Virus record (IMG/VR): IMGVR_UViG_3300042477_000769 | Reading direction: 5' to 3' (one strand) | Source: a virus | Lineage: Duplodnaviria > Caudoviricetes | DNA length: 64,000 nt | Shown: positions 21,800 through 40,972 of the stretch, piece after piece | Numbering within the stretch: the stretch's first letter is position 1 | Layout: every line of letters starts with the position of its first letter | Notes under the pieces: model-generated | Told to the model about the DNA's origin: nothing | Database searches by the model: none | What the model saw: only the letters and a program-made list of their open reading frames with translations | Made by a program: the position numbers and the translations under genes

Positions 21800-22555
21800 A
21801 TGGAATTAAAAACACTATCTGAAATCTATCAGCTTATTTCTAAAGCGATGGAGAAAAACTCCGTTAGAAATAATACAATGATACTGAGAAAGAGAAGTTT
21901 AATTGCTTCATTCGCGGAGACCGCTCCAACTTTGAAAAAAGTTGCTTTTGATACTCGTCGAGTAGATCAAGAAAATACCTATATTTCTAGACGTGGATTA
22001 CAAAATTACCATCGTAGTGAAAAGTTTATTTCAGATAAATTATCTCAACAAATTGAAGCTTTTACCAAATTATCTAAAATTTTAGACACTTTAAAACAAC
22101 AATATAGTAAAAATTACGAATGGAATGATAGCTATACTCGTATCCTACATTCTGCTACTCATAAAGCTTTAAGAACTTTAGAAAAAGATGATGATTTTAG
22201 TGATGCTCAGCCTTCGGTTGGTAATTTAACGTATTTAGAAGAATTAATGTATTTAAGATATCGTTTAACTATTGATGATTTATTAAATATGAGTGATGAG
22301 AATCTAAAAAAGGCTATTTTAGATAAAGATGAGTTTTTGACTAGAAACTTTACTCCCGAAGAAGTAACTATTACTCCGACTGATATAAATAACAATAATT
22401 ACCAAGACATGTTTAATAAAATGATGGCTTTAATGACTCAAGCCTTTCAACAACAGCAACAACAAAGCTTAAAAATTGAAGGAGTGGAGAAAAAATTGGA
22501 AGTCAAACATGGTAATAGCGAAGAAAAAGTAATTAATATTACTATTAAGGTGTAA
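21800..22555 (+). CDS. Hypothetical protein
   Basis: AGGA RBS before ATG 21800; helical and Gln-rich near the C-terminus; no family recognised. Confidence 0.6.
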   Translation: MELKTLSEIYQLISKAMEKNSVRNNTMILRKRSLIASFAETAPTLKKVAFDTRRVDQENTYISRRGLQNYHRSEKFISDKLSQQIEAFTKLSKILDTLKQQYSKNYEWNDSYTRILHSATHKALRTLEKDDDFSDAQPSVGNLTYLEELMYLRYRLTIDDLLNMSDENLKKAILDKDEFLTRNFTPEEVTITPTDINNNNYQDMFNKMMALMTQAFQQQQQQSLKIEGVEKKLEVKHGNSEEKVINITIKV

Positions 22556-22560
22556 TTTTA

Positions 22561-23157
22561 ATGGATCAGTTTGCCCCGTTCTTAAAAAGAAATGGTTCTT
22601 TTGTGGTCAGAAATATTACTCCTGATCGTCAAAAGACTATTAAAATTTTTAATTATCCTATTTTATTTAATCAAACTAGAGATTTATTACAAATTCCAGG
22701 AGTTTCCGAACAAGATTTAAGAGCTTCCTTATTAAAAGGAGAATTACGTCATAAAATTTTAGCTCAAGATATTGTGGTAGTTGCTAGTGACATTGATTTA
22801 TTACAATTTAATGATGACCAAAAACAATTTTTACGTGATGCTGGCATTATCAATGGTTTACAAGTTGGGGTGCCACAAATTAATTTCTTACGTCAAGAAG
22901 ATGTTCAATTAATTGGAGCAGTTAATAATATTAATACCGTTTATACTATTCCGACAGGTAAGTTTATCCAAGATGCTACTTTTAAGATTATTGTTTATAA
23001 GAACGGTGTGAAGCAGGTGTTTTTAGATGATTATTTTATTGCTGAAAGTGGTGGGCCAGGTACTGGATATGATACTGTAATTTTTACTATTGCTCCAACT
23101 ACTATCCCTGCTCCAGATGATATTTTAACAGCCGATTATTATATAGTAAACGAATAA
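22561..23157 (+). CDS. Virion structural protein, candidate fibre anchor or head appendage
   Basis: C-terminal GAVNNINTVYT...VYKNGVKQ..DDY...IFTIAP..DDILTADY module is typical of phage fibre/appendage proteins; N-terminus resembles the 43203 ORF. Confidence 0.5.
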   Translation: MDQFAPFLKRNGSFVVRNITPDRQKTIKIFNYPILFNQTRDLLQIPGVSEQDLRASLLKGELRHKILAQDIVVVASDIDLLQFNDDQKQFLRDAGIINGLQVGVPQINFLRQEDVQLIGAVNNINTVYTIPTGKFIQDATFKIIVYKNGVKQVFLDDYFIAESGGPGTGYDTVIFTIAPTTIPAPDDILTADYYIVNE

Positions 23158-24128
23158 TGCTAGCAGACAACGCTTCCCCAGTATCCGAATTTTCGGCAGT
23201 TATCTCTACGCCTCGTAGATTAACGCTAGAGAACGTCTCTCAAAAATTAAAAATTAAACAAATTTCATTAGTGGATTCTATTTTTTTAGGTTTAAAAGTT
23301 AAACATAATTTTCAATGTTTAGCCTGTCACTATCAGTGGACTACTCGTCTGGATGAGGTTTTATACAAATCAGGCTGCCTGAAATGTAGCGGATCGATGC
23401 GAAAAACTCAAGATGAAATAAATGATATTTTAAAGCCTAGGTTTATTGTTGCATTAGAGCAGCACAAAAACAATCAAGATAAAATTAATTTCCAATGTAT
23501 CAAAGAAAATTGTGGGTTTGTTTGGAAATCTTGTGTTGATAAAATTGTCAATGCCAAACATGGTTGTCATAAATGTGCTAATCATCTCAATAGGACTAAA
23601 GAAGAAATTAACGAATTATTGCAATCTAGATCCATTGAATTAATAGATAATCATCAAAAAACGAATGAGCGTCGTTGGTTTAAATGTCATCAATGTCAAC
23701 ATGTCTGGAAAACATTAGTAGCCAATGTTTTGTTTAAAACTGGTTGCCCAGCATGTAAAAATAAAAACGAAAAGTTGTTTAAACAAGAATTATGTCAAAA
23801 TAATTTTAATTTTTATTATCAAGTTAAGCTATCAGATTTAGATACCAGCATTGATAAAAAATATGTAGTAGATTTTTATTTACCAGAATTTAAGACTATT
23901 ATTGAATATAATGGTAAGCAACACTATCAGCCCGTTAAGTTTAATAACATTTCTGACGAACTAGCTATGAAAAATTTTCAACAACAACAAATAAGGGATG
24001 AGTTTGTTAAAAGCTGGTGTAACAATAATAATATCAAATTAATTCAAGTAGATGGTCGTTATATATTCAATAATAAAATAAAAGAATATGTAGCTAAGTT
24101 AGGTAATCAGTTGAGCGGTAATGAGTAA
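23157..24128 (+). CDS. Zinc-ribbon repeat plus PD-(D/E)xK (DUF559/Vsr-like) endonuclease; putative homing endonuclease
   Basis: Three CxxC..W...GCxxC repeats, then [20 protein letters not shown]. Confidence 0.75.
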
Positions 24129-27100
24129 AATAAATGCCAATCAAATAAAGGGCGTCCCTACTGGCTCCGGAGGCGGAGGAGGCACCGGTCCAACCGGCCC
24201 CCAAGGGCCTCAAGGATCTCCTGGCGCTACTGGACCTCAAGGATTACAAGGTTCTCCCGGTGTTACAGGACCAATTGGGCCTATTGGACCTACTGGCCCT
24301 GCCGGAGGACCTATTGGTCCAACAGGCCCCCAAGGCCCTCAAGGTTCTCCTGGCGTTACTGGACCACAAGGAGCTAATGGTGCTCCAGGAGCTACTGGCC
24401 CTCAAGGTGCGACTGGATTACCTGGACCCACAGGTCCAGCAGGCGCAGCTGGTCAGCCTGGCGCAACAGGTCCTGCAGGAGCCACGGGCCCACAAGGACC
24501 AACTGGAACAATTGGCCCACAAGGACCAACTGGTCCTCAAGGAGCTAATGGTGCTCCGGGCGCTACAGGGCCTCAAGGTGCGACTGGTTTACCAGGGCCT
24601 ACAGGAGCGACTGGCCCAGCTGGAGCCACAGGCCCTCAAGGTGCTACTGGAAGTATTGGTCCACAAGGCCCCACCGGAAGTATTGGATCAACGGGACCTA
24701 CAGGCCCAGCAGGAGCCACTGGTCCAGCCGGAGCTACTGGTCCTCAAGGAGCGACTGGTGTACCAGGACCTACCGGTGCCACAGGACCAGCTGGAGCTAT
24801 AGGTCCACAAGGTCCTACTGGAAGTATTGGCCCACAAGGTCCAACTGGATTACCAGGAACTACTGGAGCGACAGGTCCAGCCGGAGCCACTGGTCCGGCC
24901 GGAGCTACTGGACCTCAAGGCCCAACTGGCTTACCAGGGACTACCGGTGCCACAGGCCCTGCAGGAGCCACTGGCCCACAAGGACCAACAGGATCAATTG
25001 GTCCACAAGGACCGACAGGTAGTATTGGATCAACAGGACCTACTGGTCCAGCTGGAGCGACTGGTGCACCAGGCCCAACTGGTAGTATTGGACCTCAAGG
25101 CCCAACAGGCAGTATTGGACCTCAAGGAGCGACTGGACCACAAGGAGCTACTGGACCACAAGGTATACCAGGTCCTACTGGAGCTACAGGTCCTGCCGGA
25201 GCAATAGGTCCACAAGGACCAACTGGCAGCGTTGGGCCACAAGGACCGACAGGATCTATTGGTTCTACTGGACCAACTGGACCTCAAGGTTCTACAGGAA
25301 GTATTGGGCCTCAAGGCGCAACTGGAAGTATTGGACCACAAGGTCCAACGGGTAGTATTGGAACGACTGGCCCAACTGGACCTCAAGGCCCAACTGGACA
25401 AAGAGGTGCGACTGGTTTACCAGGACCCACAGGAGCTACTGGTCCTGCAGGAGCAGCAGGTCCACAAGGACCTACCGGAAGTATTGGTCCACAAGGCCCA
25501 ACTGGAAGTGTTGGCCCAACTGGATCAATAGGACCTCAAGGACCCACAGGCAGTATTGGACCACAAGGCCCAACGGGCAGTATTGGCCCACAAGGGCCAA
25601 CTGGTCCACAAGGAGCTACAGGATCAATTGGACCACAAGGCCCAACTGGAAGTGTTGGTCCAACTGGATCAATAGGCCCTCAAGGACCTACTGGAAGTAT
25701 TGGACCGCAAGGTCCAACTGGAAGTATTGGTTCTACGGGTCCAACCGGACCACAAGGACCACAAGGGTCACAAGGAGCAACAGGACTACAAGGACCTACC
25801 GGAAGTATTGGACCACAAGGTCCAACTGGTAGTATTGGAACTACAGGGCCAACAGGACCTCAAGGACCAACTGGACAAAGAGGTGCGACTGGATTACCAG
25901 GAACTACTGGTGCAACTGGCCCTGCAGGAGCCACGGGACCACAAGGACCTACTGGAAGTATTGGTCCACAAGGACCGACAGGTAGTATTGGTTCAACTGG
26001 ATCAATAGGTCCACAAGGGCCTACCGGAAGTATTGGTCCACAAGGTCCTACCGGAAGTATTGGTCCACAAGGCCCAACTGGCCCTCAAGGAGCTACAGGA
26101 CAACAAGGAGTAACAGGATTACCAGGACCGACCGGAGCAATTGGTCCTGCAGGAGCCACTGGACCACAAGGATCCACAGGTAGTATAGGCCCACAAGGAC
26201 CTACCGGATCTATTGGTTCAACAGGAGCTACAGGACCACAAGGAGCTACAGGTAGTATTGGGCCTCAAGGACCGACAGGATCAATTGGATCAACTGGACC
26301 TACTGGGCCTCAAGGGCTTCAAGGGGCTACCGGTCCACAAGGATCTACCGGATCAATTGGGCCTCAAGGTCCAACTGGAAGCATTGGTTCTACAGGACCT
26401 CAAGGATCAACTGGACCTCAAGGATCGATCGGGCCTGCAGGAGCTACTGGACCTCAAGGGCCAACAGGATCAATTGGACCACAAGGACCAACAGGCAGCA
26501 TTGGATCGACTGGACCTACTGGTCCACAAGGAGTTCAAGGTGCTACTGGACCAATTGGACCTCAAGGAACTACAGGTCCTCAAGGAGCTACAGGCCCTAT
26601 TGGCCCACAAGGACCAACAGGAGCTATTGGTCCACAAGGGCCTACTGGAAGTATTGGAACTACCGGACCAACTGGGCCTCAAGGACCAACTGGACAAAGA
26701 GGCGCAACTGGTTTGCCTGGCGCTACTGGCCCACAAGGCCCAACAGGCAGTATTGGTTCCACTGGACCAACAGGCCCTCAAGGACCACAAGGTATTCAAG
26801 GCGCTACAGGATCAATTGGACCTCAAGGATCTACTGGTCCTCAAGGCTCTACAGGAAGTATTGGACCACAAGGCCCAACAGGACCTCAAGGCTCTACTGG
26901 AAGTATTGGTCCACAAGGACCGACAGGTAGTATTGGATCTACTGGGCCAACAGGACCGCAAGGGCCTCAAGGCGTTCAAGGACCTACGGGTAGTATTGGT
27001 CCTCAAGGCCCAACAGGCAGTATCGGATCTACAGGCCCAACAGGACCTCAAGGACCACAAGGACCTACAGGCAGTATTGGCCCACAAGGGCCGACAGGTA

Positions 27101-30100
27101 GTATTGGTTCTACTGGACCAACAGGACCTCAAGGGCCAACAGGTCCTCAAGGACCACAAGGAATTCAAGGCGCTACTGGGCCTCAAGGCTCTACTGGCAG
27201 TATTGGCCCACAAGGACCGACAGGTAGTATTGGCTCTACTGGACCGACAGGCCCACAAGGACCGCAAGGTATTCAAGGAGCTACTGGACCTCAAGGCTCT
27301 ACTGGAAGCATTGGTCCACAAGGCCCAACAGGTAGTATTGGATCAACAGGACCGACAGGACCACAAGGCCAACAAGGTGTTCAAGGCGCAACTGGACCTC
27401 AAGGATCTACAGGATCAATAGGTCCACAAGGACCCACAGGCAGTATTGGTTCTACTGGACCAACAGGACCTCAAGGACCCCAAGGAATTCAGGGACCCAC
27501 TGGACCTCAAGGTTCTACAGGATCAATTGGACCACAAGGCCCAACAGGACCAACAGGACCTCAAGGACCACAAGGTATTCAGGGACCTACAGGTAGTATT
27601 GGGCCACAAGGTCCAACTGGCAGTATTGGTCCACAAGGTGTTCAAGGACCCACAGGAAGTATTGGATCTACTGGACCGACAGGACCTCAAGGGCCACAAG
27701 GCGCTACTGGACCTCAAGGTTCTACAGGATCAATTGGACCACAAGGCCCACAAGGACCCACAGGAAGTATCGGATCTACTGGACCTGCAGGAGCTACTGG
27801 CTCACAAGGACCTCAGGGAATTCAAGGAGCAACTGGTCCTCAAGGTTCTACTGGAAGTATAGGATCTACTGGACCAACCGGACCTCAAGGACCACAAGGT
27901 ATTCAAGGGCCCACTGGAAGTATTGGTCCACAAGGTCCAACAGGCAGTATTGGACCACAAGGTATTCAAGGACCAACAGGTAGTATTGGCTCTACCGGAC
28001 CGACAGGACCGCAAGGACCACAAGGTGTTCAAGGTCCTACAGGAAGCATTGGACCACAAGGACCAACAGGAAGTATTGGCCCACAAGGACCAACAGGAAG
28101 TATTGGCTCTACCGGACCGACAGGTCCACAAGGACCACAAGGTGTTCAAGGCCCAACAGGCAGTATTGGATCTACTGGTCCTCAAGGCCCGACAGGTCAA
28201 ATAGGGGCTACTGGTTTGCCTGGCGCTACCGGATCAATTGGTCCACAAGGACCTACCGGAAGTATTGGACCTCAAGGACCAACTGGAAGTATTGGTTCTA
28301 CTGGAGCGACCGGACCCCAAGGCGCCACTGGTCCTCAAGGTGCAACTGGTCCTCAAGGAGCCACTGGTATTCAAGGACCAACAGGACAAAGAGGAGCTAC
28401 TGGAGCCCAAGGAAGTCCAGGCGTAACTGGGCCTGCAGGACCTCCAGGCGCTGGTGGATTTGTTCCAACATATGTACAAGGAGTTGTTTCTGTAACTCCG
28501 CAAGACCAACAACTTGGCCATTTATTTCAAAAATTAAGTGTTAATTCTGGTTTATCAATGCAAATTGCAACAGGTTTACAGCCTACTGCAATTATGAGAT
28601 ATTTAATTAATGAAGCAGCTTCTGGGCAAGGACCAGCAGCCATTATTGATTATGGTATTTCTTCTGGTATGCAGTTAAATATTACGTATGATGGAAGTAA
28701 TCCATCATTCGAAGATACTGTTTATGGTAGAGGAATTCGCTGGAATTCTGCGGTTAATAATGGTATTGCTGATTCAGTATTATTAACTGGAACAAAAATA
28801 GCTTCACAATTAGAAGGAACTCAAAAATTAACAGTTGAAATATTATTAGATAATCAAATTGATACGCCAGACTATAATTTTATTTGCGGATTTACTAATT
28901 CTGATGGAACTACAGATGATTTTAGTATGTATTGCTTCCCATCATTCGCATTACGTGTTGGTTGGAACGGTTCAGATTTTGCCGAATATACTTTGCCTAC
29001 AGGAATTTCTTTATTACAATTAGTCGTTGATTCTACAGAATCTATAGCTAATAATAGATGGCAATTATATATCAATGGAAAATTAGCAGTACCTAATACT
29101 ATTTTAACTCCACCTTCATTAAATCAAACATTAACTTTTAGTCCGACTACTCAATCGTTCCATATTGGTAATTTACCGGCTGGTGCACATGCTTTTGGTG
29201 GAGCCATTTATTATGTTTCAGTATATGGGTATGCTTTAAATAAAGAAGAATTAGATAATAATCTAGTTGGAGTATTTAATAGCAGTGATAAATCACCCAC
29301 AGGTACACGAGAATTCTTAAAAATTGGTGGTGTCTTAGCTACAGCTTCTGGGGCTGGATTATTATCTGTTCAAGATAAAATAAAATTAGATGCCTTACCT
29401 ACAGGCGGCGCTCCGGGAGCTACAGGTCCAACGGGACCCGCTGGACCACAAGGGCCTCAAGGAGTAACTGGTCCAGCTGGTGGTGGAGGATCTGGATCAA
29501 TTGGACCTACCGGACCAACAGGGCCAGCAGGGCCTACTGGACCAGCAGGACCTACTGGATCAATTGGACCAACTGGACCGGCAGGACCCACTATTGTATG
29601 GGGAGAGACAGAAGACTGGGCTACTTTAGAAAGTAAATTAGCAGCAGTTAATTTTAATGCCACTGTTATTGTTAAAGCTGACGGTGGTGGTGGACGAAAT
29701 ATTACTAGTGCCGCCATGAATTGGCGAGGATTAAGATGGGTGAGTAATGAGCCAGAAGGTTCATTAATTAATATCCAAGCAGGAGCTGGTTGGGTATCTA
29801 ATGGTTGCGCTATTATATCAGAAAATATTTTTTGGAGATTTTTCTCCAATACTCAGGTTGCAACGGGCAATTTAACTATTGACGTATATAATGGAGCATT
29901 TAATCTTTCAAATATTAGCACTGTTTCACCATTTGATCTTACTAGCACTGCTGTAGTTAGAATATTTTTTAATAATTGCGATGTAGAAGTTGTATTTAAT
30001 ACTGTTGCACCATTTGCATTAACTGGAGCTAATCCTTCACATGTTATTAATATGTTTAACTCTCGTGTGATTGGTGGAAACTGGTTGTTTTCTATTCCAA

Positions 30101-31050
30101 CAAATGGTCGAGTAAATTTTGTTCATGATTCTAGTTCACGAGTAAGAACTGCCTTAGCTACTGGCGTTGGAACACTAATTAGATATGCTCCCACAGCAAT
30201 GATATCTTGGGCAGATTCAGTTTATTATAATGATCAAACTGTTTCACCTCCTATTATTAGCGGTATTAGTTCAGGACCCTCAGTTCAAGCCGCTATTGAT
30301 CAGCTAAAAAATAGATTTATTACCGGCCCCACTGGACCTGCCGGAGCCACGGGTCCCCAAGGAGCCACGGGTCCCCAAGGAGCTACAGGACCAACTGGAG
30401 CAATTGGTCCACAAGGCGCCACTGGAGTACCTGGAGTGGCCGGAGCCTCTGCGGTTTGGATTTTAGAAGAAGGCGCCACTATTGGATTATTTAATACTAT
30501 TAATTTAGGTGGTGGATTACACGCCTCTACCGGACCAGCAGTAAATACCGTTACTATTAATCCATTGCATGATTTTGCCATTCTCGGCAGAACGGGCTCT
30601 CCCTATATTACTAGCGGGGTAGCTTCAGGAGCTATGATTCAATGGAATTATCAGATAATAGGACCCACTGGTGGTGATTTTAGTCATACGACTATTGCTA
30701 CCGCAGCTGGATGGATTACCTTCCAAAAAGGCGGTTGGTATGAAATTGATTACTCTTTAAACTTTACTGGCCCAGTACAAGCTGCAGGCGGCTTGATGTC
30801 TAGTTGTTTTATTGGAGCTACTGGAGGGAATGGTCGATTTGGATTTGGTTCGGGAACTATTATTCCACAATCGGTGGCAATTGGTGTGGTACCCTCAGGT
30901 TGGTTAAGTCAAAGCTTTATGACCTATATTCCTTCTGGTAGGAGTATGCAAACTTACATTCAACGATATCCTACCGTATTAATTTCCGGAATCAGCGGCA
31001 TTGCTATTTCACCTACAGGCACTAAATTATCTATTAAAAGAATCGGATAA
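24121..31050 (+). CDS. Giant collagen-like fibre protein (about 470 G-X-Y triplets, LamG-like domain, further short collagen tracts, C-terminal BclA-C/C1q-like domain)
   Basis: [12 protein letters not shown] triplets over about aa 20-1440. [31 protein letters not shown] is LamG-like; [17 protein letters not shown] is TNF/C1q/BclA-C-like. Confidence 0.85.
24181..28452 (+). repeat. Collagen-coding 9-bp-period imperfect tandem repeat
   Basis: GGN-NNN-NNN periodicity with diversified synonymous codons; recurring units GPTGSIGPQ and GATGPQ. Confidence 0.95.
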
Positions 31051-31125
31051 TTTAAATCTCCTTGCTATATAAGTAAGGAGTATAATTGACTGCCTTGGGA
31101 AGTCAATTTAATAAATGGAAGTGCC

Positions 31126-34100
31126 ATGGAAAAAGCAAGTATTAGTTTATGTTTAATTGTTAAAAATGAACCATTTCTAGAAAAATGTTTATTATCAATT
31201 AAAGATTATGTCTCAGAAATTGTTATTGTTGATACTGGTTCAACTGATAATACTCCTGAAATTGCCAAAAAATATGCTGATAAGTTTGAAGTATATACTG
31301 AGTGCAATGATCCTGTTACCGGATTAATTGAAGATTTTTCTAAAGCCCGCAATTATTCATTTTCTTTAGCTACTCAACCCTGGATTTTGTGGTGTGATGG
31401 TGATGATATTATTGAAGGCGGACAGTATTTTAATACCTTTTTAAAAGAATTTGAAGTCAATAAATTACACTTACAAAGTAAAAATCAAACATTAGATGGG
31501 GTTGCTTTTCTATTTCCTTATGAATATGCTTATAATGACAATGGTCAATGTATTTTAAGACATTATCGAGAACGATTAATTTCAAATAAAGAGTATTTTA
31601 CTTGGGTTAATCCAGTACATGAAGTTCTTATTCCTAAAGATAATTATCAATTATCTATGATTCCTAAAGATGAAGTTGTTTTTAAGCATCAAAGACAATT
31701 TACTGGTAAACACATTGAATCTGGAAGAAACTTAAGAATACTTAAAAAATATTATGAGCAAGTCGGAGATTCAGATGCTCGACAATTATATTATTTAGGA
31801 TTAGAATATTGCAATTCAGGATTTATTGAAGAGTCAATTGCTTCTTTAAAAAAGTATATTTCTTTATCTGGATGGGAAGATGAAAAGGTCATGGCCTGTC
31901 TTAAATTGATTGAAATTTATTTCAATCAACAAAAATATGACGAAGCATTAGTATGGGCTTTTAAAGCTATAGAAATTAAAGAAAATTGGTGTGAAGGTTA
32001 TTTGGCACTGGGTAAATTATTTTATTTTAAAGGAATGTTAGGCGGGCCAGAATCAACTAGAAACTGGCAAAAATGCGTTCATTTTATTAGAGAAGGATTA
32101 AAATTACCACCCACCAAAACATTATTATTTATTAATCCACAAGAACGAGATTATTTTTCTTATGTCTATTTAAATTATGCTCTTAATAAATTAGGAGATG
32201 TGCAGGGAGCTTTAGAGAGCGTTAATATGGGTTTAAAAGCAGAGCCTAATGATACTATGTTATTAGGGAATAAAAAAATATATGAAGATTTCTTGGCGCG
32301 AGATGCGATTGTTAAAGCTAGTAATTCATTAAAAAATAATGGCACTTTAACAGATGTTGCTGTTGAAAAGATTAGTGCTATTATCAATAATTTAGAGTTA
32401 CCACAAATTGAAGTAGTTAAAAAGAAAAGTTTGCTTCGTAAATCGCGAACTAATGTATTAGATATTATATTTTATCTAGGTAACGGAGTAGAAATATGGT
32501 CTCCTGAAACTGTGAGAAAAAATGGCATTGGCGGTAGTGAGTTAATGGCATTAGAATTGGCCAAAAGATTAGCTACTTTAGGTCATAAAGTTAGAGTATA
32601 TAACAGTTGTGGAAATTATGAAGGCACTTATGATGGAGTAGAATATTGTCAAACAGAAAAATATCATGATTTAAACTGTGATGTGTTAGTTGTCTCTAGA
32701 GATGCTTCAGCTTTAGACAATTCTACTATTACTAGTAAGCTTAAATTATTGTGGGTACATGATATTTTTGCATTAAATGCCAATAGTAAATTACTATTAC
32801 AAGCAGATAGAATTTTAGCCTTATCTCAATGGCATAAAAAATTCTTAATGGAGCATCATCATCTTCATCCGGAACATATTATAGTTACTAGAAATGGGAT
32901 TGATTTAAATAGGTTCAATATCTCGGTAGATAGAAATAAATATAAGTGTATTAATAGTAGTAGTCCTGATCGTAGCTGGCCGGTGTTATTAGATGTTTGG
33001 CCCACTATTAAAAATGCAGTTCCTCAAGCCGAGCTTCATTTATTTTATGGGTTTAAAAATTGGGAATATAGCGCTCAATTTAATCCAAAACAACAAGAAA
33101 CAATTGCTAGTTTAAAAGAACAAATAAATTCATTACAAAAACTAGACGTTTATTTTCACGATCGAGTTGATCAAGTAACGTTAGCTAAAGAGCTATTATC
33201 CTCTGGTGTGTGGACTTATCCGACATTTTTTACAGAAACTTCGTGTATTACCGCGATGGAAATGCAAGCGGCTGGCGTACGAATGGTTACTTCTAATATT
33301 GCGGCTTTAACAGAAACAGTTGGTAACAGAGGCGTTTTATTAGATGGAGATTGGACCTCAGCAGAATATAAAAATAAATTTATTGCAGCGGTGGTAGAAA
33401 AATTAACACACGAAGATGAATCAGATAGAAAAGAATTACAAGAATATGCTAGATTAAATTTTGATTTAGATCAATTGGCTTTGGATTGGGAAGATATGTT
33501 TTATTCTTTATTAAAAGAAATTACCACTAATCCATTAGTGCCTTATTTTCCAACTCGTCCATATTTAAGTAGATCTTCTTTTCACTCGGCTCCCTTTAGT
33601 TTACTAAATACTGACAATTTAGTTAAACTAAATATTGGTGCTGGCCCTAATATTTTTCCATTTGATGGATGGATTAATTATGATAGAGTATATTTTTCCG
33701 AATATTTTCAGCAATTAACTATGGTAGCTAAAGATGTGAATTTACCAGAAAATGAAAGACATCCTAATACCATTTCATGGATGAAAAATATAACTTCTCG
33801 ACAAGGCAAATTAATAGATTATTTGTCTCGTGGAGGATCTATTGAATATAGAATAGGTGACGTTCAGTATCCTTTTGATATGCATCCAGATAATAGTGTA
33901 GATATTATTTATCTAGGGCAAATGATTGAACATTTAAATCCTATTTATGTGATACCTAAATTATTAGCTGAGTGTTATCGTATGTTAAAGCCAGGTGGAA
34001 CATTAAGAATAACTACACCTGATTTAGATTTATTAATTCAAGCATATCTAAACAATGATTTAGATAAATTTTCTAACGAACAACCGTTATTTTATAAAGA

Positions 34101-34347
34101 GGCCGATCCTAGTGAACAATTAGCTTATATTATGTATGGTGCTTGTGGTCCAAATTGCTCTTGGAACAATTATGAAGGTCATATGTTCTTATTTACTAAG
34201 AATTCGATGCGCAAAGCACTTAAAAATGTAGGATTTGAAAAAATTAAGTTTTTCAATTCTGGACATTTAAGTGATCATCCAGTTATTTTACAAGAAGTAA
34301 CGGATGAAGGTGTGAGTCATTCTCTCTTAGTTGAGGCTATTAAGTGA
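31126..34347 (+). CDS. Multidomain glycosyltransferase: GT2 + TPR + GT4 + class I SAM methyltransferase
   Basis: SLCLIVKNE/DTGSTD/FSKARN/WILWCDGDD (GT2); helical TPR-like middle; GIGGSE..ELAKRL..LGH and ETSCITAMEMQAAG (GT4); LNIGAG..GWINYD, EHL, LKPGG.LRI.TPD (methyltransferase). Confidence 0.88.
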   Translation: MEKASISLCLIVKNEPFLEKCLLSIKDYVSEIVIVDTGSTDNTPEIAKKYADKFEVYTECNDPVTGLIEDFSKARNYSFSLATQPWILWCDGDDIIEGGQYFNTFLKEFEVNKLHLQSKNQTLDGVAFLFPYEYAYNDNGQCILRHYRERLISNKEYFTWVNPVHEVLIPKDNYQLSMIPKDEVVFKHQRQFTGKHIESGRNLRILKKYYEQVGDSDARQLYYLGLEYCNSGFIEESIASLKKYISLSGWEDEKVMACLKLIEIYFNQQKYDEALVWAFKAIEIKENWCEGYLALGKLFYFKGMLGGPESTRNWQKCVHFIREGLKLPPTKTLLFINPQERDYFSYVYLNYALNKLGDVQGALESVNMGLKAEPNDTMLLGNKKIYEDFLARDAIVKASNSLKNNGTLTDVAVEKISAIINNLELPQIEVVKKKSLLRKSRTNVLDIIFYLGNGVEIWSPETVRKNGIGGSELMALELAKRLATLGHKVRVYNSCGNYEGTYDGVEYCQTEKYHDLNCDVLVVSRDASALDNSTITSKLKLLWVHDIFALNANSKLLLQADRILALSQWHKKFLMEHHHLHPEHIIVTRNGIDLNRFNISVDRNKYKCINSSSPDRSWPVLLDVWPTIKNAVPQAELHLFYGFKNWEYSAQFNPKQQETIASLKEQINSLQKLDVYFHDRVDQVTLAKELLSSGVWTYPTFFTETSCITAMEMQAAGVRMVTSNIAALTETVGNRGVLLDGDWTSAEYKNKFIAAVVEKLTHEDESDRKELQEYARLNFDLDQLALDWEDMFYSLLKEITTNPLVPYFPTRPYLSRSSFHSAPFSLLNTDNLVKLNIGAGPNIFPFDGWINYDRVYFSEYFQQLTMVAKDVNLPENERHPNTISWMKNITSRQGKLIDYLSRGGSIEYRIGDVQYPFDMHPDNSVDIIYLGQMIEHLNPIYVIPKLLAECYRMLKPGGTLRITTPDLDLLIQAYLNNDLDKFSNEQPLFYKEADPSEQLAYIMYGACGPNCSWNNYEGHMFLFTKNSMRKALKNVGFEKIKFFNSGHLSDHPVILQEVTDEGVSHSLLVEAIK

Positions 34348-35429
34348 AAATTGGCATTATCGCCACTCATTCTTTTCCAATTCCGTATCCTAATCTTCAT
34401 ACGGGCGATATTATTATTTTAAATTTGGCCAAATCATTACAAAAATTAGGCCAAGAAGTTACTTTATATGCTCCAGAAGGAACTCAATTTGATAATTTAA
34501 AATCTATTAAGCCTTCTTTAGGAAAGGCAGACCCAACTGCTTATAAATGTGAAAATGAAATCTATCTGACTTATAAAGATAGTTTATTTTCTCAAGACAT
34601 AATTAGTGATTTTAGTTCCACTAAGCATATTTCAAAAGCCATGAATAATGAAGGTTTTGCAGCTACTTGCTGTACTTTAATGGGTGGACCTTGGAGATAT
34701 ACGTGGGAAACTAATAATATAATTACTTGGTCACAATCTCATCAATTTAGAGTATTAAATGGATTAACAGATTATCATCAAACGCCTTATGTTACTATGG
34801 ATAATGGAGGTTATCCAGTCTCACAAGCCGCTGTTATTTATGGAGGAATTGATACTGATTTTTATGTACCATCTTATAAAAAAGATAATTATTTCCTATG
34901 GTTAGGAAGATGGCACGAAGCTAGAGGTTATCGTATTGCTATTGAAATTGCCAAAAGAACCGGAATTAGATTAATTTTAGCTGGCGAACATCCAGATAAT
35001 GAATTTTTTGAAACTCAAAAAAAATCTGCACAAGAGGCAGAACAATTATGTCAAGGACATTCTAATATAGAAATAGTTTGGTTACCTCCCGATCCAGATC
35101 ATCATTTAATGAAAAGAAAATTGTATCAAGAAGCGATAGCTTTTATTAATCCGACTCAATTTCATGAGCCATTTGGCATGTCTCAAGTAGAGGCGATGGC
35201 ATGTGGAACACCAGTTATTACTACTAACTATGGCTCGATGCCAGAAATAATAACACATAAAAAAACCGGAATCGTATGCCAGAATGATATATATGAATTA
35301 TCTCAAGCTTGCTATCAAATTAATAATATTGATTATTATACTTGCCGGCAACGAGCAGAAGAGTTTGATCAAAAAGTTATGGCTCAATCGTATTTAAATT
35401 TTTACCAAAACATACTCACACAAAGTTAA
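34344..35429 (+). CDS. GT4 family glycosyltransferase
   Basis: IYGGIDTDFY, FLWLGR, EPFGMSQVEAMACGTPVI. Confidence 0.9.
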   Translation: MKIGIIATHSFPIPYPNLHTGDIIILNLAKSLQKLGQEVTLYAPEGTQFDNLKSIKPSLGKADPTAYKCENEIYLTYKDSLFSQDIISDFSSTKHISKAMNNEGFAATCCTLMGGPWRYTWETNNIITWSQSHQFRVLNGLTDYHQTPYVTMDNGGYPVSQAAVIYGGIDTDFYVPSYKKDNYFLWLGRWHEARGYRIAIEIAKRTGIRLILAGEHPDNEFFETQKKSAQEAEQLCQGHSNIEIVWLPPDPDHHLMKRKLYQEAIAFINPTQFHEPFGMSQVEAMACGTPVITTNYGSMPEIITHKKTGIVCQNDIYELSQACYQINNIDYYTCRQRAEEFDQKVMAQSYLNFYQNILTQS

Positions 35430-35430
35430 T

Positions 35431-36090
35431 ATGGAAATTGATTTCAAAGGAAATAAATTTATTATTAGTAAAGGCAGTACTCATCCTGAATATTCTATCT
35501 TTACTTTTACCGGAGAAGAAGTTGATTTTAAAAATAAATATTGGGATATTAAACCAGATGATATTGTTTTTGATGTTGGCTCTTCTTATGGAACTTATGC
35601 TTTAACAGCCACGGCAATGGGAGCTAAAGTTTTTTGTTTTGAGCCTGAATCGACTGTATATTGTGATTTAGTTAATAATATTAAATTAAATAATTGGGAA
35701 CAGCAATGTATAGCTCATAATTTAGCCCTTTGGAGTTGTTCATCTACGGTAGATATGAAAGACTATGCTCCTCATTGGCCAGTTCAAACTATTACTAGTT
35801 TATATCCAACTGATACGTTAGATAATATTGTTAATAAAAATAATTTAACTACAGTAAATTGGATTAAAATCGATGTCGAAGGTTCAGAAGAGCAAGTCCT
35901 ATTAGGCGCCCAAGAAACTATTACTAAATTTTCTCCTAATATGATTATTGAATGTCATAATTTTCTTGATAATCAAATAAGTAATAGAGTTAAAGAATTG
36001 ATATTATCATATAATTCAAATTATAATATTGAAGAAATTGAAAGAGATCCTTGTGTAATGTTAGTGATAAAGTTGAGAGGAAGAATATGA
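35431..36090 (+). CDS. FkbM-family SAM methyltransferase
   Basis: VFDVGSSYG, FEPE, IKIDVEGSE..VL.GA. Confidence 0.85.
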   Translation: MEIDFKGNKFIISKGSTHPEYSIFTFTGEEVDFKNKYWDIKPDDIVFDVGSSYGTYALTATAMGAKVFCFEPESTVYCDLVNNIKLNNWEQQCIAHNLALWSCSSTVDMKDYAPHWPVQTITSLYPTDTLDNIVNKNNLTTVNWIKIDVEGSEEQVLLGAQETITKFSPNMIIECHNFLDNQISNRVKELILSYNSNYNIEEIERDPCVMLVIKLRGRI

Positions 36091-37208
36091 AAGTTGGGGT
36101 TATTTTAGGGGCATTTAGTATTGGAACTCGTCCTTTAGATTTTTGGTATAATAATATTTGGGATAGTGCTAGGGGATTAACGGGCACTGATTTATGTTTT
36201 GTTAAAACGGCACAAATTTTAGCTCAACGAGGGCATGAAGTCCATTTATTTACTGTACATGCTCAGCCCGCACATAAGCCAGACTACTGGGAAAATGTAA
36301 AAATTCATTCTTTTGAAGATCGTTTCAGTGTTATTGATGACTCTTTTGATGGATTAATTTCTATTAATGAGCCGGATGTATTTAGAGGATTAACTACTAA
36401 ACCCGTGCGTATTGTGTGGCAAATGTTAAATGATTTTCCTTTTTGCCAAGAAGGTTTTGACGATTTTGTCGATCACTGGTTTGGAGTTTGTAATCAACAT
36501 ACTGAATTCTTAAAAAAACAAGTAGCTAAACCAGAAAAATGGCAAACTTTGCCATTAGGATGCAGTCCAGAATGGTATCAAGATCAACGAGTTCCTGGTC
36601 GTGTCATTTGGTGTTCCAGTGCAGATCGAGGTTTACATGTATTGTTATCCCAATGGCCCTTAATTAAAAAAGCGGTTCCACATGCAACATTAAAAATATT
36701 TTATCATTTTAATTATAGTGGCTTAGAAGATATTAGCCCACATGATAAAGAAAGTCATTTTCATGTAGTAGAAATGGGAAATCGTATTAGGTATATTAAA
36801 TATGCTATTGATAAATTAAAAAATTTTGGTGTTGAACATGTCGGGTCAATTAGTCGAGAGCAAATGAAAAAAGAATTTAGCGAAGCGGCAGTCTTTGCTT
36901 TTAGTTGTGACACGGTTGCCTTTTCTGAAGGTTTTTCAGTATCTACCTTAGAGGCTCACGCAAGTTTTACCGTACCAGTTATTACTTCTCAAGATTGTTT
37001 GGGGAGCATTTATCAAGATTCGGGCGCTATTATTATTCCAGCTCCAGTTAAAGATCATTTGCCAGACTATACACAAGCAGTGATTAAAAGTTTATTAGAT
37101 ACCGAATATTCTAATGAAATTATTAAAAATTGTCGTAATTTTGCTGAAAATCATACCTGGGAAAAAAGCGTCTCAGTCCTGGAATCTACTATTTCTGCGG
37201 GTAAATAA
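36087..37208 (+). CDS. GT4-like glycosyltransferase
   Basis: GLTGTD..AQILAQRGHEVHLF, WCSSADRGL, EGFSVSTLEA. GAGG RBS before ATG 36087, which overlaps the upstream stop. Confidence 0.8.
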   Translation: MKVGVILGAFSIGTRPLDFWYNNIWDSARGLTGTDLCFVKTAQILAQRGHEVHLFTVHAQPAHKPDYWENVKIHSFEDRFSVIDDSFDGLISINEPDVFRGLTTKPVRIVWQMLNDFPFCQEGFDDFVDHWFGVCNQHTEFLKKQVAKPEKWQTLPLGCSPEWYQDQRVPGRVIWCSSADRGLHVLLSQWPLIKKAVPHATLKIFYHFNYSGLEDISPHDKESHFHVVEMGNRIRYIKYAIDKLKNFGVEHVGSISREQMKKEFSEAAVFAFSCDTVAFSEGFSVSTLEAHASFTVPVITSQDCLGSIYQDSGAIIIPAPVKDHLPDYTQAVIKSLLDTEYSNEIIKNCRNFAENHTWEKSVSVLESTISAGK

Positions 37209-37246
37209 AAATTAGTCGATGTTATAATTGACTGAGAAAGGTGACC

Positions 37247-37663
37247 ATGGATAATAAAAAATACTCAGAGATGGTAGAAAAAGAAGAATTTCCAACGGAA
37301 ATGTCGGTACCATTAGATACTCCGACTATCGATGAACGAGGCGTAATACAAAATATTCTAAACTCTCATGTTGGCAGTGTAGCGATTATTACTAGTAAAG
37401 CTGGTTCTGTCAGAAGTAATCATTGGCACCAAAGCAATTGGCATTATTTATATGTCATTTCTGGTAAGATGAAATATCTAGAAAGAAATTTAGATGGTTC
37501 AGGTTTAAAAGAAAAAGTATATCAAACTGGAGAATTAGTTTTTACTGCTCCTCATAAAGCCCATCGAACAGAATTTTTAGAAGATACAGTCTTATTAAGC
37601 CTAGGAAAGTCTTCTAAAGAGCATCAACATCATGAAGAAGATTTAGTTAGAGTGATATGGTAA
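37247..37663 (+). CDS. Cupin-fold NDP-sugar isomerase/epimerase-like protein (WxcM/FdtA-like)
   Basis: SKAGSVRSNHWH...YLYVISGK and P..AH cupin motifs, within the sugar cluster. Confidence 0.65.
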   Translation: MDNKKYSEMVEKEEFPTEMSVPLDTPTIDERGVIQNILNSHVGSVAIITSKAGSVRSNHWHQSNWHYLYVISGKMKYLERNLDGSGLKEKVYQTGELVFTAPHKAHRTEFLEDTVLLSLGKSSKEHQHHEEDLVRVIW

Positions 37664-37666
37664 GTT

Positions 37667-38899
37667 ATGCAAGTCAAGAATAAAGTTGTCAAAAATTGTT
37701 TATTATGTGGCGGAGAAACTAAAATAATTATAGATTTAGGAAAAACACCTTTAGCTAATAATTTCACTACTGAAAAAGTTGCCCAAAAAACTTTCCCTTT
37801 ACGCTTAGTACAATGCCAACATTGTCAACATGTACAATTAGATTATATTGTACACCGTAAAACTTTGTTTGAAAATTATTTATATGTTTCCGGCACTTCA
37901 CCAGTTAATGTGAAACATTTTCAGGATTATGCTCATCAAGTAATTGAAAAATTTCAATTAAATGAACATAATTTAGTTTGTGATGTGGCCTCTAATGATG
38001 GATGTTTCTTACAGAATTTCAAAAATACTACCAAAATAGTTGGAGTGGACCCAGCTAAGAATATTGCGGAAGAAGCAAATCAAAATGGAATTTATACTAT
38101 TGCTGATTTCTTTTCGACTAAATTAGCCAAAGAAATTAAACAAAATCATGGGTTTGCTAAAGTTATTACTTGTAATAATATGTTAGCTCACAATATGGAC
38201 ATTAAAGATATTGTTAAGGGCGTCAAAGCGCTTCTTGATCCTCAAGGGACTTTTATCTTTGAAAATTCTTATTTATTAGATATTGTTAATTTTGATCTTA
38301 TTGATTTGGTGTACCATGAACATATTCATCATTTTCACATCTATCCATTAGTTAAGTTTTTTAATCAATTAGGGATGGATATTTATCATGTGGAGCGCTT
38401 ACCTAATCATGGTGGCTCTATTAGAGTATATGTTTGCTTTCAAGGACAATATCCAATCGACCCATCAGTTCAGCAATGTTTAGAGTTAGAAAAAGAAATT
38501 CCTAATAAAATTAAACAGTTAGCAGTTAAAATTGAACAATTAAAAGAAAAAATTAATACCAGCTTGTTATCTTTACATTCTCAAGGTAAAAAAATTGGAG
38601 TTTTTGGTTTTCCGGCAAAAGCTACAACATTAATTTACGGACTAGGAATCAATATGAAGACCATAGATTTTATTGTAGATGATGCCAAATTAAAACAAGG
38701 AAAATTTATTCCCAGCCAATCTCAAAAAAAATCAATGGTAATTGAACCTCCTTCAGTTATTGTAAGTAAAAATCCAGATTATTTATTAATTTTGGCTTGG
38801 AATTTTGCGGATTCTATTATAGAAAATTGTAAAAAACAAGGTTATACTGGCAAATTTATTGTTCCGCTGCCACAATTTAGCATTAAGGGGGAAATGTGA
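37667..38899 (+). CDS. NDP-hexose C-methyltransferase (Methyltransf_13/14-type)
   Basis: CLLCG..DLGKTPLANNF..C..C.HVQL zinc domain, DVASNDG, YHEH, HGGSIR, G.PAKATT. Confidence 0.88.
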   Translation: MQVKNKVVKNCLLCGGETKIIIDLGKTPLANNFTTEKVAQKTFPLRLVQCQHCQHVQLDYIVHRKTLFENYLYVSGTSPVNVKHFQDYAHQVIEKFQLNEHNLVCDVASNDGCFLQNFKNTTKIVGVDPAKNIAEEANQNGIYTIADFFSTKLAKEIKQNHGFAKVITCNNMLAHNMDIKDIVKGVKALLDPQGTFIFENSYLLDIVNFDLIDLVYHEHIHHFHIYPLVKFFNQLGMDIYHVERLPNHGGSIRVYVCFQGQYPIDPSVQQCLELEKEIPNKIKQLAVKIEQLKEKINTSLLSLHSQGKKIGVFGFPAKATTLIYGLGINMKTIDFIVDDAKLKQGKFIPSQSQKKSMVIEPPSVIVSKNPDYLLILAWNFADSIIENCKKQGYTGKFIVPLPQFSIKGEM

Positions 38900-39864
38900 A
38901 AAAAATATTAGTTACAGGTTCATGTGGATTTATTTTCTCTAATTTTATGAGAAAAGTGATGCAAGATAAATTACCCTATACTTTTGTCAGTATAGATAAA
39001 GTATTATCGCCTTATAATTTATATAATGTGGAGTTAAATAAAGACCACCATTTTTATATGGGAGATATTGCTGATGAGCAATTTGTCGAGAATGTTTTTA
39101 AATTAGAAAAACCAGATATTATCATTCATGGAGCAGCAGAAAGTTTTGTTGACGACTCTATTCGAAGTGCTGCTCCATTTATTCATTCTAATGTAGTCGG
39201 CACCCAAGTCATGGTAGATATTTCTTTAAAATATAATGTAGAAAAATTTATTTACATTAGCACCGATGAAGTATATGGTCAATTGGCCTATGGTGATAGT
39301 AGCTGGACTGAGCTATCTTCTATTAATCCTAGAAATCCCTATTCTGCTTCTAAGGCTGCAGGAGAACTAATCGTGAGAGCAGCTAATCAAACTCATGGTC
39401 TAAAGTATAACATTACCCGATGCTGTAATAATTATGGCCCTAGTCAGCCATATCGTAATTTAGTGCCGGTTATTATTTATAATTTATTGCATAATAAACC
39501 TATTCCTATTCATGGTAGTGGAAAACAATATCGTGAATGGATTTATGTTGAAGACCATATTAGTGCTATTTTAAAAGTATTAGAGTCAGGTTCTGTAGAT
39601 GAAACATATAATATTGGTACTGGAGCAGAATGTACTAATTTAGAAATGGTGGAAAATATTGCCGCTATTTTGAATAAAACCCCTATAATTCAAAATGTAA
39701 AAGATCGCCCCGGTCATGATTTTAGATATTCAGTTAATTGCTCCAAATTACACAAATTAAAATGGAAACCTTCTTTTAAATTTACCGAAGGTTTAGAAAA
39801 GTGTGTGAATTGGTATCTAAATAATACTTGGTACTGGAATGAACAATCTAATATTAGTTGGTAA
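38896..39864 (+). CDS. rmlB: dTDP-glucose 4,6-dehydratase
   Basis: ILVTGSCGFI.SNF, H.AAESFVD.SI, STDEVYG, YSASKAA, NNYGP, DRPGHDFRY. Confidence 0.9.
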   Translation: MKKILVTGSCGFIFSNFMRKVMQDKLPYTFVSIDKVLSPYNLYNVELNKDHHFYMGDIADEQFVENVFKLEKPDIIIHGAAESFVDDSIRSAAPFIHSNVVGTQVMVDISLKYNVEKFIYISTDEVYGQLAYGDSSWTELSSINPRNPYSASKAAGELIVRAANQTHGLKYNITRCCNNYGPSQPYRNLVPVIIYNLLHNKPIPIHGSGKQYREWIYVEDHISAILKVLESGSVDETYNIGTGAECTNLEMVENIAAILNKTPIIQNVKDRPGHDFRYSVNCSKLHKLKWKPSFKFTEGLEKCVNWYLNNTWYWNEQSNISW

Positions 39865-40624
39865 TGGTCAGTGGGGAAAGAATTATGTTAACACTTTGAG
39901 ACAATTTTCAAATGTAAATTTAAAGATTGCTAATAGAAATAATTGGCAATCTTTAATTGATCAAGGCGCAGATGGCGTCATTATCTGTACCCCTCCAGAT
40001 TCACATATAGAAATTGCTCATTTTTCCTTATCAAGAAATATTCCAACTATGATAGAAAAGCCGGTGGCTTTATCTATGTCAGAAGTATTATCCTTAGAAA
40101 CTTATACCGTTCCTATTTTAGTGAATTATATTCATTTATTTTCTGAAGCTTATCAACTAGCTAAACAATCTATTCAAGGCCCAATATTAGAGATTAATTC
40201 TATTGGTTATAATAAAGGGCCTCTCCGCACTTATTCTAGTTTGTGGGATTATGGCTCCCATAATATAGCCATGATATTAGATCTTATAAATAAGATGCCA
40301 ACTTCCATAACGGCCAAAAAAGAGATTACTCCACATGGAGAGTTATTTCATTTATCTTTAAAGTTTGATCAGATAAATACTCTGAGTATTATTGGAAATG
40401 GGGCCGAAACGAAAGCCTTAAAATTAGATATTAAATCTAAAAACCATGTAATTTATGATAATAAAGATAATTCATCTTTACAGATTAGTCCGTTAACTAG
40501 TGCGTTACAAGTTTTTATTCGAGCTCTCCATGGGCACAATGATGGTAGGTTAGGATTATATTTAACGAAGCAAGTTACTCAAATCCTAATAGAATGTGAA
40601 AATATATGTAATATTCTTATATAG
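39839..40624 (+). CDS. Gfo/Idh/MocA family oxidoreductase (probable sugar ketoreductase)
   Basis: ILVGNGQWG, IICTPPDSH, IEKP, WDYGSH. Confidence 0.8.
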   Translation: MNNLILVGNGQWGKNYVNTLRQFSNVNLKIANRNNWQSLIDQGADGVIICTPPDSHIEIAHFSLSRNIPTMIEKPVALSMSEVLSLETYTVPILVNYIHLFSEAYQLAKQSIQGPILEINSIGYNKGPLRTYSSLWDYGSHNIAMILDLINKMPTSITAKKEITPHGELFHLSLKFDQINTLSIIGNGAETKALKLDIKSKNHVIYDNKDNSSLQISPLTSALQVFIRALHGHNDGRLGLYLTKQVTQILIECENICNILI

Positions 40625-40639
40625 TAGGAGGAGTGAATA

Positions 40640-40957
40640 ATGCCTGATTTTGGAAATCCTAGAGCCCCGATTGATTATGGTTTTGATTATAATTTCTTTG
40701 CCAAACTTACTGTCAATAATGCTAATTATAATACAAATTGTGATATGATTATTAATTTAGCCGCTCCGACGTATGCGGTGTCGTTTCAGTTGGAGAGCGG
40801 GACCCGAATTGAGTACTCCTTTAACGGCATCACCACCCATGGCGACATGATCCTTTCCGAAGCCAGCACCAACCTATTATTTCAAAACAGAGTCATCTCT
40901 AAAATATGGTTTAGAGGCGATGGCTATGTTCGAGTAGAAGCATGGGCCATTAGATAA
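40640..40957 (+). CDS. Hypothetical small beta-rich protein
   Basis: Strong AGGAGG RBS; no family recognised. Confidence 0.6.
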   Translation: MPDFGNPRAPIDYGFDYNFFAKLTVNNANYNTNCDMIINLAAPTYAVSFQLESGTRIEYSFNGITTHGDMILSEASTNLLFQNRVISKIWFRGDGYVRVEAWAIR

Positions 40958-40972
40958 TTTATAAGAAAGACC

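Follow-up and report, generated by a model that had tools for sequence, protein, structure and literature searches.

A Thr-rich collagen-like fibre gene and a linked cassette for its possible glycosylation among the head genes of a megaphage resembling phage G

The window, i.e., the whole stretch of 64,000 nucleotides analysed here from the virus record IMGVR_UViG_3300042477_000769 (Duplodnaviria; Caudoviricetes), covers part of the genome of a very large tailed phage, a megaphage resembling Bacillus phage G, and its DNA recurs in many lake-water metagenome runs. The system considered consists of a gene for a 2309-aa collagen-like fibre, followed on the same strand by eight co-directional genes which overlap or are spaced by 2-75 bp (Table 1). 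They code for a fusion enzyme with domains of glycosyltransferase family 2 (GT2), tetratricopeptide repeats (TPR), glycosyltransferase family 4 (GT4) and a methyltransferase, for two further GT4 enzymes, an FkbM-type methyltransferase, a cupin, a C-methyltransferase, the dehydratase RmlB and an oxidoreductase; this gene order, proposed in an earlier note from the letters of the window, is confirmed by the open reading frames (ORFs) and by searches of Pfam, NCBIfam and the Protein Data Bank (PDB). The cassette lies 9 kb downstream of the gene for the major head protein (MCP), in a block of head genes; in Bacillus phage G, whose genome comprises 497 kb, the counterpart of this MCP is gp27. The same note had placed the system inside a virion module, which holds insofar as the MCP gene and a sheath-like gene flank it, but the term is loose, homing endonucleases, an AsnB-like gene and a gene for a CCA-adding enzyme being interspersed among the virion genes.

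Table 1. Features of the window (nucleotide positions, or residues of the fibre where so stated; L-numbers designate loci and G-numbers genomes of relatives).
Feature	Position	Strand	Evidence and remarks
Prohead-protease-like gene	365-3964		
Major head protein (MCP)	14654-15715	+	phrog_2522 E 1e-76; 53% identity to Bacillus phage G gp27
up198, conserved protein of the head module, 198 aa	22561-23157	+	in 80 IMG/VR loci
DUF4379/DUF559 ORF	23157-24128	+	Pfam; splits up198 from collagen gene; missing at this position in L002; scattered in other loci
Collagen-like fibre, 2309 aa, uninterrupted ORF	24121-31050	+	
LamG/ConA-like region	fibre residues ~1595-1710		PF13385 (LamG_3)
Two 10-triplet segments	fibre residues 1763-1824		
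Possible β-helix domain, 244 residues	fibre residues 1825-2068		Atlas leads 0.87-0.92 only
14 triplets	fibre residues 2069-2110		
TNF/C1q/BclA-like head	fibre residues ~2147-2309		AlphaFold 2 model, VIA and Foldseek
Fusion enzyme, 1073 aa	31126-34347	+	Pfam and PDB matches; 75-bp gap after fibre gene
GT4 glycosyltransferase (glycan extension)	34344-35429	+	PF00534 E 4.5e-21; 42-52% identity in relatives
FkbM-family methyltransferase	35431-36090	+	PF05050 E 3.5e-16; TIGR01444 88 bits
Second GT4-like glycosyltransferase	36051-37208	+	PF13692 27.8 bits, borderline against cut-off 27; kept in nearly all related cassettes
Cupin, 140 aa	37241-37663	+	PF14667 E 1.9e-7, PF07883; NF047837 WbcJ residues 254-336; Cap5F cupin domain E 1.7e-4
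NDP-hexose C-methyltransferase, TylC3/MtmC/TcaB9/KijD1 family	37667-38899	+	PF08421 (Methyltransf_13) and PF08484 (Methyltransf_14)
dTDP-glucose 4,6-dehydratase (RmlB)	38896-39864	+	TIGR01181 E 1e-104, 349.9 bits, slightly below cut-off 365.1
GFO/IDH/MocA-type NAD(P) oxidoreductase	39839-40624	+	PF01408 N-terminal domain E 1.4e-7; PDB 3c1a E 1e-20, protein of unknown function
p105, small conserved ORF, right border of slot	40640-40957	+	after cassette in L002, L006, L033, L042, L063, L072
Sheath-like gene	58250-61294		

The fibre contains 511 G-X-Y triplets, 477 of which form a single tract (residues 17-1448) interrupted by one extra residue; by the conversion for F-BclA, where 701 residues correspond to ~196 nm (PMC12357932), this tract measures ~400 nm. 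Position Y is occupied by Thr in 216 triplets (42%), by Gln in 150 and by Ile in 80, position X by Pro in 263 and by Ser in 115, and Ser and Thr together number 340 across the 511 triplets. The tract is devoid of Asp, Glu and Lys and has only 4 Arg residues. Its short N-terminus carries the conserved, phage-specific motif MSKINxxQIKGV, and no signal peptide is found on the fibre. Pfam detects nothing in the protein beyond Collagen and LamG_3, for its non-collagen C-terminal 880 aa a tblastn search of 50,697 phage records gives zero matches, and the leads listed in Table 1 make a right-handed β-helix possible for residues 1825-2068. An AlphaFold 2 (AF2) model of the C-terminal head, built from 25 family sequences (mean predicted local distance difference test score, pLDDT, of 74.8), is a jelly roll of the TNF/C1q type, a result with which Foldseek and VIA concur and which bears out the likeness to BclA drawn in the earlier note. 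Best in VIA are EDA-A1 (Z 15.3), the C-terminal domain (CTD) of F-BclA (9h38, Z 15.2) and the BclA CTD (3twi and 1wck, Z 15.1 and 14.8), the root-mean-square deviation from the BclA and F-BclA domains being 2.2-2.5 Å, and phage receptor-binding heads rank next with Z of 11-12.5. This head family is small, with 28 representatives in 1.84 billion proteins, all of them collagen-linked proteins of this phage group. As modelled, the fibre follows the plan of BclA, its collagen stalk being rich in Thr and its head C1q-like, although no homology to BclA is detectable in the sequence. The location of its gene right behind those for the capsid is suggestive of head fibres, and its C1q-like, lectin-like and β-helix-like tips hint at a role in adhesion.

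The fusion enzyme comprises a GT2 domain (PF00535, residues 7-110, E 4.5e-15), TPR_1/2/11 repeats (~219-302), a GT4 domain (~546-776) and a class I methyltransferase domain (~905-1040). A structural comparison of its GT2-TPR module, as the earlier note had suggested, places it with SunS and ThuS by fold and with GmaR, SunS and ThuS by profile. In an AF2 model of residues 1-460 (pLDDT 89.6), a GT-A fold (residues 1-190) is followed by 11 helices (residues 201-420), and for the whole 420-residue module Foldseek returns ThuS (7msk) and SunS (7msn) as top PDB matches (E 2e-14), all others being at 4e-07 or weaker, and a SunS-annotated protein as the best match among AlphaFold database clusters (E 1.4e-26). 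With a profile of 18 homologues, the three best PDB matches are GmaR (E 7.9e-23), SunS (6e-12) and ThuS (2.5e-10), their DxDD motif is aligned, and D91, D93 and D94 are invariant among the 18. These nearest solved relatives, including GmaR, the flagellin O-GlcNAc transferase of Listeria, are all glycosyltransferases of proteins or peptides, which supports the fibre as acceptor. The enzyme falls outside the SunS equivalog family TIGR04195, which it matches over the N-terminal 90 residues only and with 36.7 bits at a cut-off of 350. We propose that the GT2 (GT-A) and TPR part is an initiating protein O-glycosyltransferase, that the GT4 (GT-B) domain acts as extender, and that the C-terminal S-adenosylmethionine-dependent methyltransferase performs a capping step. 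More than 2650 homologues of the GT2-TPR region exist, the best 120 of them sharing 50-68% identity, many on contigs of 100-480 kb. Domain order varies among fusion enzymes, being GT2-TPR-GT4-methyltransferase in the window, GT2-TPR-methyltransferase-GT4 in L002 (9998-13369) and GT2-TPR-GT4 with a separate methyltransferase elsewhere, which points to repeated shuffling of what appear to be the same modules. Two homologues (P0003 and P0033) are ~1450 aa long and give LAGLIDADG or Hint/intein matches in Pfam (PF14528, PF13403, PF14890), suggesting that putative inteins reside inside the glycosyltransferase in some megaphages.

Among the remaining enzymes, the C-methyltransferase is assigned by Pfam scores of 55.8 bits for the Zn-binding N-domain (PF08421) and 114.5 bits for the C-terminal domain (PF08484), both over their cut-offs, and by full-length PDB matches to MtmC (4rv9, E 3.6e-65, residues 6-406) and TcaB9 (E 8e-51). 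The FkbM-family enzyme is a probable sugar O-methyltransferase, and the cupin, which resembles the C-terminal cupin domain of CapF/WbcJ, probably epimerises or isomerises a 4-keto sugar. The dTDP-L-rhamnose pathway (RmlABCD) was considered and is rejected: no cluster protein matches RmlC (PF00908), there is no stand-alone RmlD ORF, the rmlD matches (TIGR01214, NF007440, PF04321) being secondary ones on the RmlB dehydratase itself, and of the four enzymes the cassette has RmlB alone, so that the product is not rhamnose. Judged from their families, RmlB, the cupin, the C-methyltransferase and the GFO enzyme would convert dTDP-glucose to a C-methyl-branched 6-deoxyhexose, the isomer of which is not readable from the sequence.

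The association between fibre and enzymes was examined in 65 distinct loci around GT2-TPR homologues, scored by script. Wherever the glycosyltransferase is 50% or more identical and the locus extends 3 kb or more upstream of it, a collagen-like ORF lies upstream on the same strand (23 of 23 loci), in 20 cases within 1.3 kb, and in most long loci genes for GT4, FkbM, cupin, C-methyltransferase, RmlB and GFO enzymes come after. The glycosyltransferase-linked collagens of more than 40 relatives mostly have 0-2% charged residues and Thr at 30-60% of the Y positions. In L002 (IMGVR_UViG_3300028735_000004), an ORF for a receiver-domain response regulator (19310-19729) is inserted between the C-methyltransferase and RmlB genes, and one for a patatin-like phospholipase (21535-22398) follows the GFO gene.

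For the reverse test, up198 was used as locus marker, because the alignment of the C-terminal head is too divergent for a locus scan. In the 80 IMG/VR loci up198 is nearly always found 1-4 kb downstream of the MCP gene. Every collagen-bearing up198 locus of sufficient length holds the fusion enzyme, and in ~35 collagen-less up198 loci with at least 5 kb of downstream sequence no glycosyltransferase occurs within 10 kb. Genome-wide, the glycosyltransferase profile matches all five collagen-bearing genomes and none of five collagen-less relatives, which are 95-100% complete and have no long collagen ORF. The synteny survey proposed in the earlier note therefore finds the collagen gene and the glycosyltransferase cluster co-occurring and jointly absent. 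On the MCP tree, the collagen state changes at least four times on well-supported branches, indicating that fibre and enzymes move in and out together, repeatedly.

The site of this exchange is a hypervariable slot in a backbone p405-p234-MCP-(p197)-p260-up198-[slot]-p105-p107-p114 (12505-23157 and 40640-42405 in the window), which is common to ~80 IMG/VR megaphage loci (L086-L165). The slot between up198 and p105 measures 3.5-17 kb and contains either the collagen and glycosyltransferase cassette or unrelated ORFs of 500-1250 aa, which p105 likewise follows in collagen-less relatives; in these alternative contents Pfam gives one weak match to the Ig-like domain Big_1 only. At the left border, up198 abuts the collagen ORF in L002, L063, L067, L072 and others, and the ORF that separates the two in the window is probably a homing-endonuclease-like insertion outside the system. 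A function of up198 as anchor or adaptor for the fibre is possible; no match was obtained for it in Pfam, PHROG or PDB, a PDB profile search included. Atlas offers language-model leads for up198 to the N-terminal domain of the T7 tail fibre and to DUF4183, which at 0.78-0.80 stay under the trust level of 0.9 and are not relied on. DUF4183 is the fold where the F-BclA collagen fibril docks in endospore appendages of Bacillus.

The genes present, their folds, the composition of the fibre and its joint occurrence with the enzymes are what is observed here. On the basis of comparative genomics and structure prediction, and with SgtA of Clostridioides difficile as model, we consider it rather probable that the enzymes O-glycosylate the fibre in the cytoplasm before assembly. 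The claim of the earlier note that the phage attaches a glycan of its own to the fibre is favoured by synteny, folds and composition; the attachment itself, the fibre as its acceptor, the order of steps, the exact sugar and the presence of the fibre on the virion are what we infer. A coat or glycocalyx, as that note had envisaged, rather than a few long fibres, finds no direct support. In the proposed sequence of events, RmlB would convert dTDP-glucose, supplied by the host or by a phage nucleotidyltransferase encoded elsewhere, to dTDP-4-keto-6-deoxyglucose, the cupin would epimerise or isomerise this sugar, the TylC3/MtmC-type enzyme would add the C-methyl branch and the GFO enzyme would reduce the keto group, resulting in a C-methyl-branched 6-deoxyhexose. 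The TPR domain might hold the unfolded or nascent fibre while the GT2-TPR module places the first sugar on Thr or Ser of the G-X-T triplets; three GT4 modules would then lengthen the chain, the branched sugar being used at this point, and the FkbM and class I methyltransferases would O-methylate the glycan. Finally, the fibre would trimerise from its C1q/TNF-like head, and its conserved N-terminus would mount it on the virion.

Several points weigh against this proposal. A gene for RmlA or another NTP_transferase is present neither in the window nor in ~145 related loci, and RmlA is encoded nowhere in the complete relative G001, so that the pathway of the cassette is not complete and the earlier description as a complete pathway was overstated; relatives G007, G009 and G010 have a clear NTP_transferase ~90 kb away, and G008 has a match below the cut-off only. 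That the GFO oxidoreductase is the ketoreductase finishing the sugar is a guess, and so is the position of C-methylation. The likeness to SgtA and BclA3 of C. difficile, i.e., a GT2 and TPR_11 module adjoining a G-X-T-rich collagen gene, is drawn from the description of SgtA only. Neighbouring genes are gained and lost together regardless of joint function, and hitch-hiking has to be kept in mind; an independent-pairs test on the MCP tree yields seven concordant contrasts on the best tree and one on well-supported branches, and with this single contrast we claim no phylogenetically corrected significance. None of the metagenome runs holding DNA of the window is an RNA run. A complex prediction for the GT2-TPR module (residues 1-430) with the fibre N-terminus (residues 1-80) scored 0.00; it was run with no controls and is evidence neither way. 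Lastly, a glycosyltransferase cluster lacking the collagen gene, which the earlier note had regarded as a refutation, is seen in none of the 23 close loci but in five of the ten loci with less than 50% identity, most of these five being on contigs of high GC, and in a 42.6-kb podovirus from Manatee Spring (L083, MW202524.1, 1656-11978), in which a GT2-TPR-GT4 enzyme of 29% identity is encoded directly after the MCP. The enzyme family is thus broader than its pairing with collagen. A PHROG scan of the upstream genes of the collagen-less distant locus L030 found homing endonucleases only. In the podovirus, a 598-aa repeat protein rich in Ser, Thr, Gly and Asn is encoded inside the glycosyltransferase and methyltransferase cluster, which may represent the same principle realised without collagen.

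These distant homologues and the podovirus enzyme, together with the location of the cassette 9 kb downstream of the MCP gene in the head block, might also suggest that the enzymes, in place of the fibre or in addition to it, glycosylate further proteins of the virion, be it the MCP, a decoration protein, up198 or proteins of the tail. Non-collagen virion proteins are glycosylated by mycobacteriophages (Freeman et al. 2023, cited in PMC12582341). Yet five complete relatives with 78-92% identical MCPs do without the enzyme, which the capsid hence does not require; the presence of the enzyme follows that of the collagen gene rather than the MCP, and in the podovirus cluster the Ser/Thr-rich repeat protein is once more an adjacent putative fibrous acceptor. 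We therefore regard such a target as unlikely.

A modification of a host surface polymer (capsule, lipopolysaccharide, teichoic acid or S-layer) which blocks superinfection seems distinctly improbable to us. Loci for surface polysaccharides typically contain GT4 enzymes and pathways for 6-deoxysugars, and a review on jumbo phages interprets clusters for NDP-sugars and glycosyltransferases as diversification of capsule or O-antigen (PMC7824862). Against this, none of the 16 proteins encoded at 21773-42405 has a membrane segment (19-residue Kyte-Doolittle mean of at least 1.6), Pfam detects no flippase, polymerase, transporter or priming phosphoglycosyltransferase family, so the cassette is not a Wzx/Wzy or ABC surface-polysaccharide locus, the nearest relatives of the lead enzyme act on proteins or peptides, and the cluster shows strict linkage with a Thr-rich collagen gene in the head block, together with which it is lost.

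That the enzymes act on phage DNA, as in base hypermodification, or on a small glycocin-like peptide that is secreted, the collagen gene being a mere neighbour, is highly improbable: an AsnB-like amidotransferase gene and an overlapping 443-aa methyltransferase-like ORF (17833-20473) do lie 4-6 kb upstream of the cassette, bacteriocin peptides are the substrates of SunS and ThuS, which match best by fold, and phage G carries T4-type DNA glucosyltransferases, but the AsnB-like gene has no homologue in ~145 related loci, which leads us to reject DNA modification, the 443-aa ORF occurs in collagen-bearing and collagen-less relatives alike, so that neither is tied to the cassette, no 5-hydroxymethylcytosine/TET-type or T4-type DNA glucosyltransferase gene is linked to it, no DNA-modification gene of the kind that the earlier note had named as a refutation is so consistently, and no Cys-rich peptide or export gene lies within it.

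Phage G itself lacks the cassette, and its sole collagen-like protein, gp195 (L084, 8751-9311), is a highly charged, GDK-rich tail fibre of 186 aa. Its glycosyltransferases (L085, 7188-14141) are T4-type α-glucosyltransferases, encoded with an RmlA-like gene among nucleotide-metabolism genes in a DNA-modification context. In the window, homing-endonuclease-like ORFs are scattered unusually densely among the structural genes (16677-17810, 23157-24128, 40973-41770, 57526-58203, 61320-62051 and 62784-63668), their types being helix-turn-helix with LAGLIDADG, DUF4379/DUF559, weak HNH, two endonuclease VII-like and HNH. A CCA-adding tRNA nucleotidyltransferase is encoded on the minus strand (20457-21689) and occupies the region between MCP and up198 in many relatives, and a LigT or 2',5' RNA ligase-like phosphoesterase is found at 45705-46193, also on the minus strand. 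Between the cassette and the sheath gene, a 2032-aa ORF (50606-56704), with no match in PHROG, probably encodes a large structural protein. A scan of 22500-42499 for promoters and terminators gave counts no different from those of shuffled sequences and hence no information on operon structure.

A wider picture is tentative and, in our estimate, rather doubtful: megaphages of the phage G lineage would build a layer of head fibres resembling the spore nap or the fibrils of Mimivirus, the cassette being swapped through one hypervariable slot beside the capsid gene, and the collagen helix, free of hydroxyproline and charge, would depend on dense O-glycosylation of Thr in position Y with a phage-made, methyl-branched and methyl-capped sugar, so that glycosylation would serve as folding requirement and as shield or adhesin. 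To our knowledge, phage virion glycosylation has so far been shown only for capsid and tail proteins of mycobacteriophages. If the fibre is glycosylated as proposed, virion glycosylation would be extended to a large uncultured group, the lead enzyme having >2650 homologues, dozens of them on contigs of 100-480 kb, and glycosylated collagen fibres would then be made not only by giant viruses and spore-forming bacteria but also by tailed phages, with a sugar pathway of their own and an assembly-line enzyme. Such fibres would offer a natural test of whether glycosylation of Thr stabilises a collagen helix without hydroxyproline or charge pairs, and the cassette would provide a compact enzyme set for glycosylated recombinant collagens. 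The proposal would also bear on the adhesion of very large phages to hosts or particles in lake water.

Collagen-like tail fibres, virion glycosylation in mycobacteriophages, glycosylation of BclA and BclA3, and fibril glycans of Mimivirus are all described in the literature, and our searches on collagen in connection with phage G and with jumbo or huge phages brought up no phage that pairs a collagen fibre with its own glycosylation cassette, in agreement with the earlier note, which knew of no such locus in a tailed phage. The GT2-TPR module is nearest to GmaR, SunS and ThuS by profile and whole-module fold, with the DxD region aligned, and these three act on side chains of proteins or peptides in the cytoplasm; unlike the phage enzyme, they are not fused to GT4 or methyltransferase domains, and their acceptors are flagellin or bacteriocin Cys residues. 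In mycobacteriophages (Freeman et al. 2023) and Mimivirus, own glycosyltransferases encoded in or near structural genes decorate the particle (PMC9614988, PMC9546862, PMC12582341). The acceptors in mycobacteriophages are capsid and tail-tube subunits and not collagen fibres, and these phages are not known to have a sugar-synthesis pathway. Mimivirus, with its collagen-like proteins, self-made rare sugars and fibre layer, resembles what is proposed for the phage, but is a eukaryotic virus, the collagen of which is modified on hydroxylysine by a presumably unrelated enzyme.

With BclA and F-BclA of Bacillus, in which the number of triplets sets the length of the stalk and genes for glycosyltransferases are close by (PMC12357932), the fibre shares a Thr-rich collagen stalk and a C-terminal trimerisation head of the TNF/C1q jelly-roll type. 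Unlike BclA, it has no exosporium leader, sequence homology between the two is not detectable, LamG-like and β-helix-like domains break its stalk, and the sugar pathway of its cassette is a C-methyl-branched one, whereas BclA carries rhamnose and anthrose. The closest known system is SgtA/BclA3 of C. difficile, in which SgtA (358 aa, GT-A and TPR_11), a soluble enzyme encoded beside bclA3, places O-GlcNAc as initiating sugar on Thr in the GPT triplets of collagen-region peptides in vitro and also accepts Ser (PMC7157674). Compared with SgtA, the enzyme of the phage carries GT4 and methyltransferase domains in the same chain and is accompanied by a pathway for a branched deoxysugar; the collagen gene comes first in the phage, the setting is a virion and not a spore, and the fibre is 3-4 times longer than BclA3, with a C1q/TNF-like head replacing the C-terminal region of the latter.

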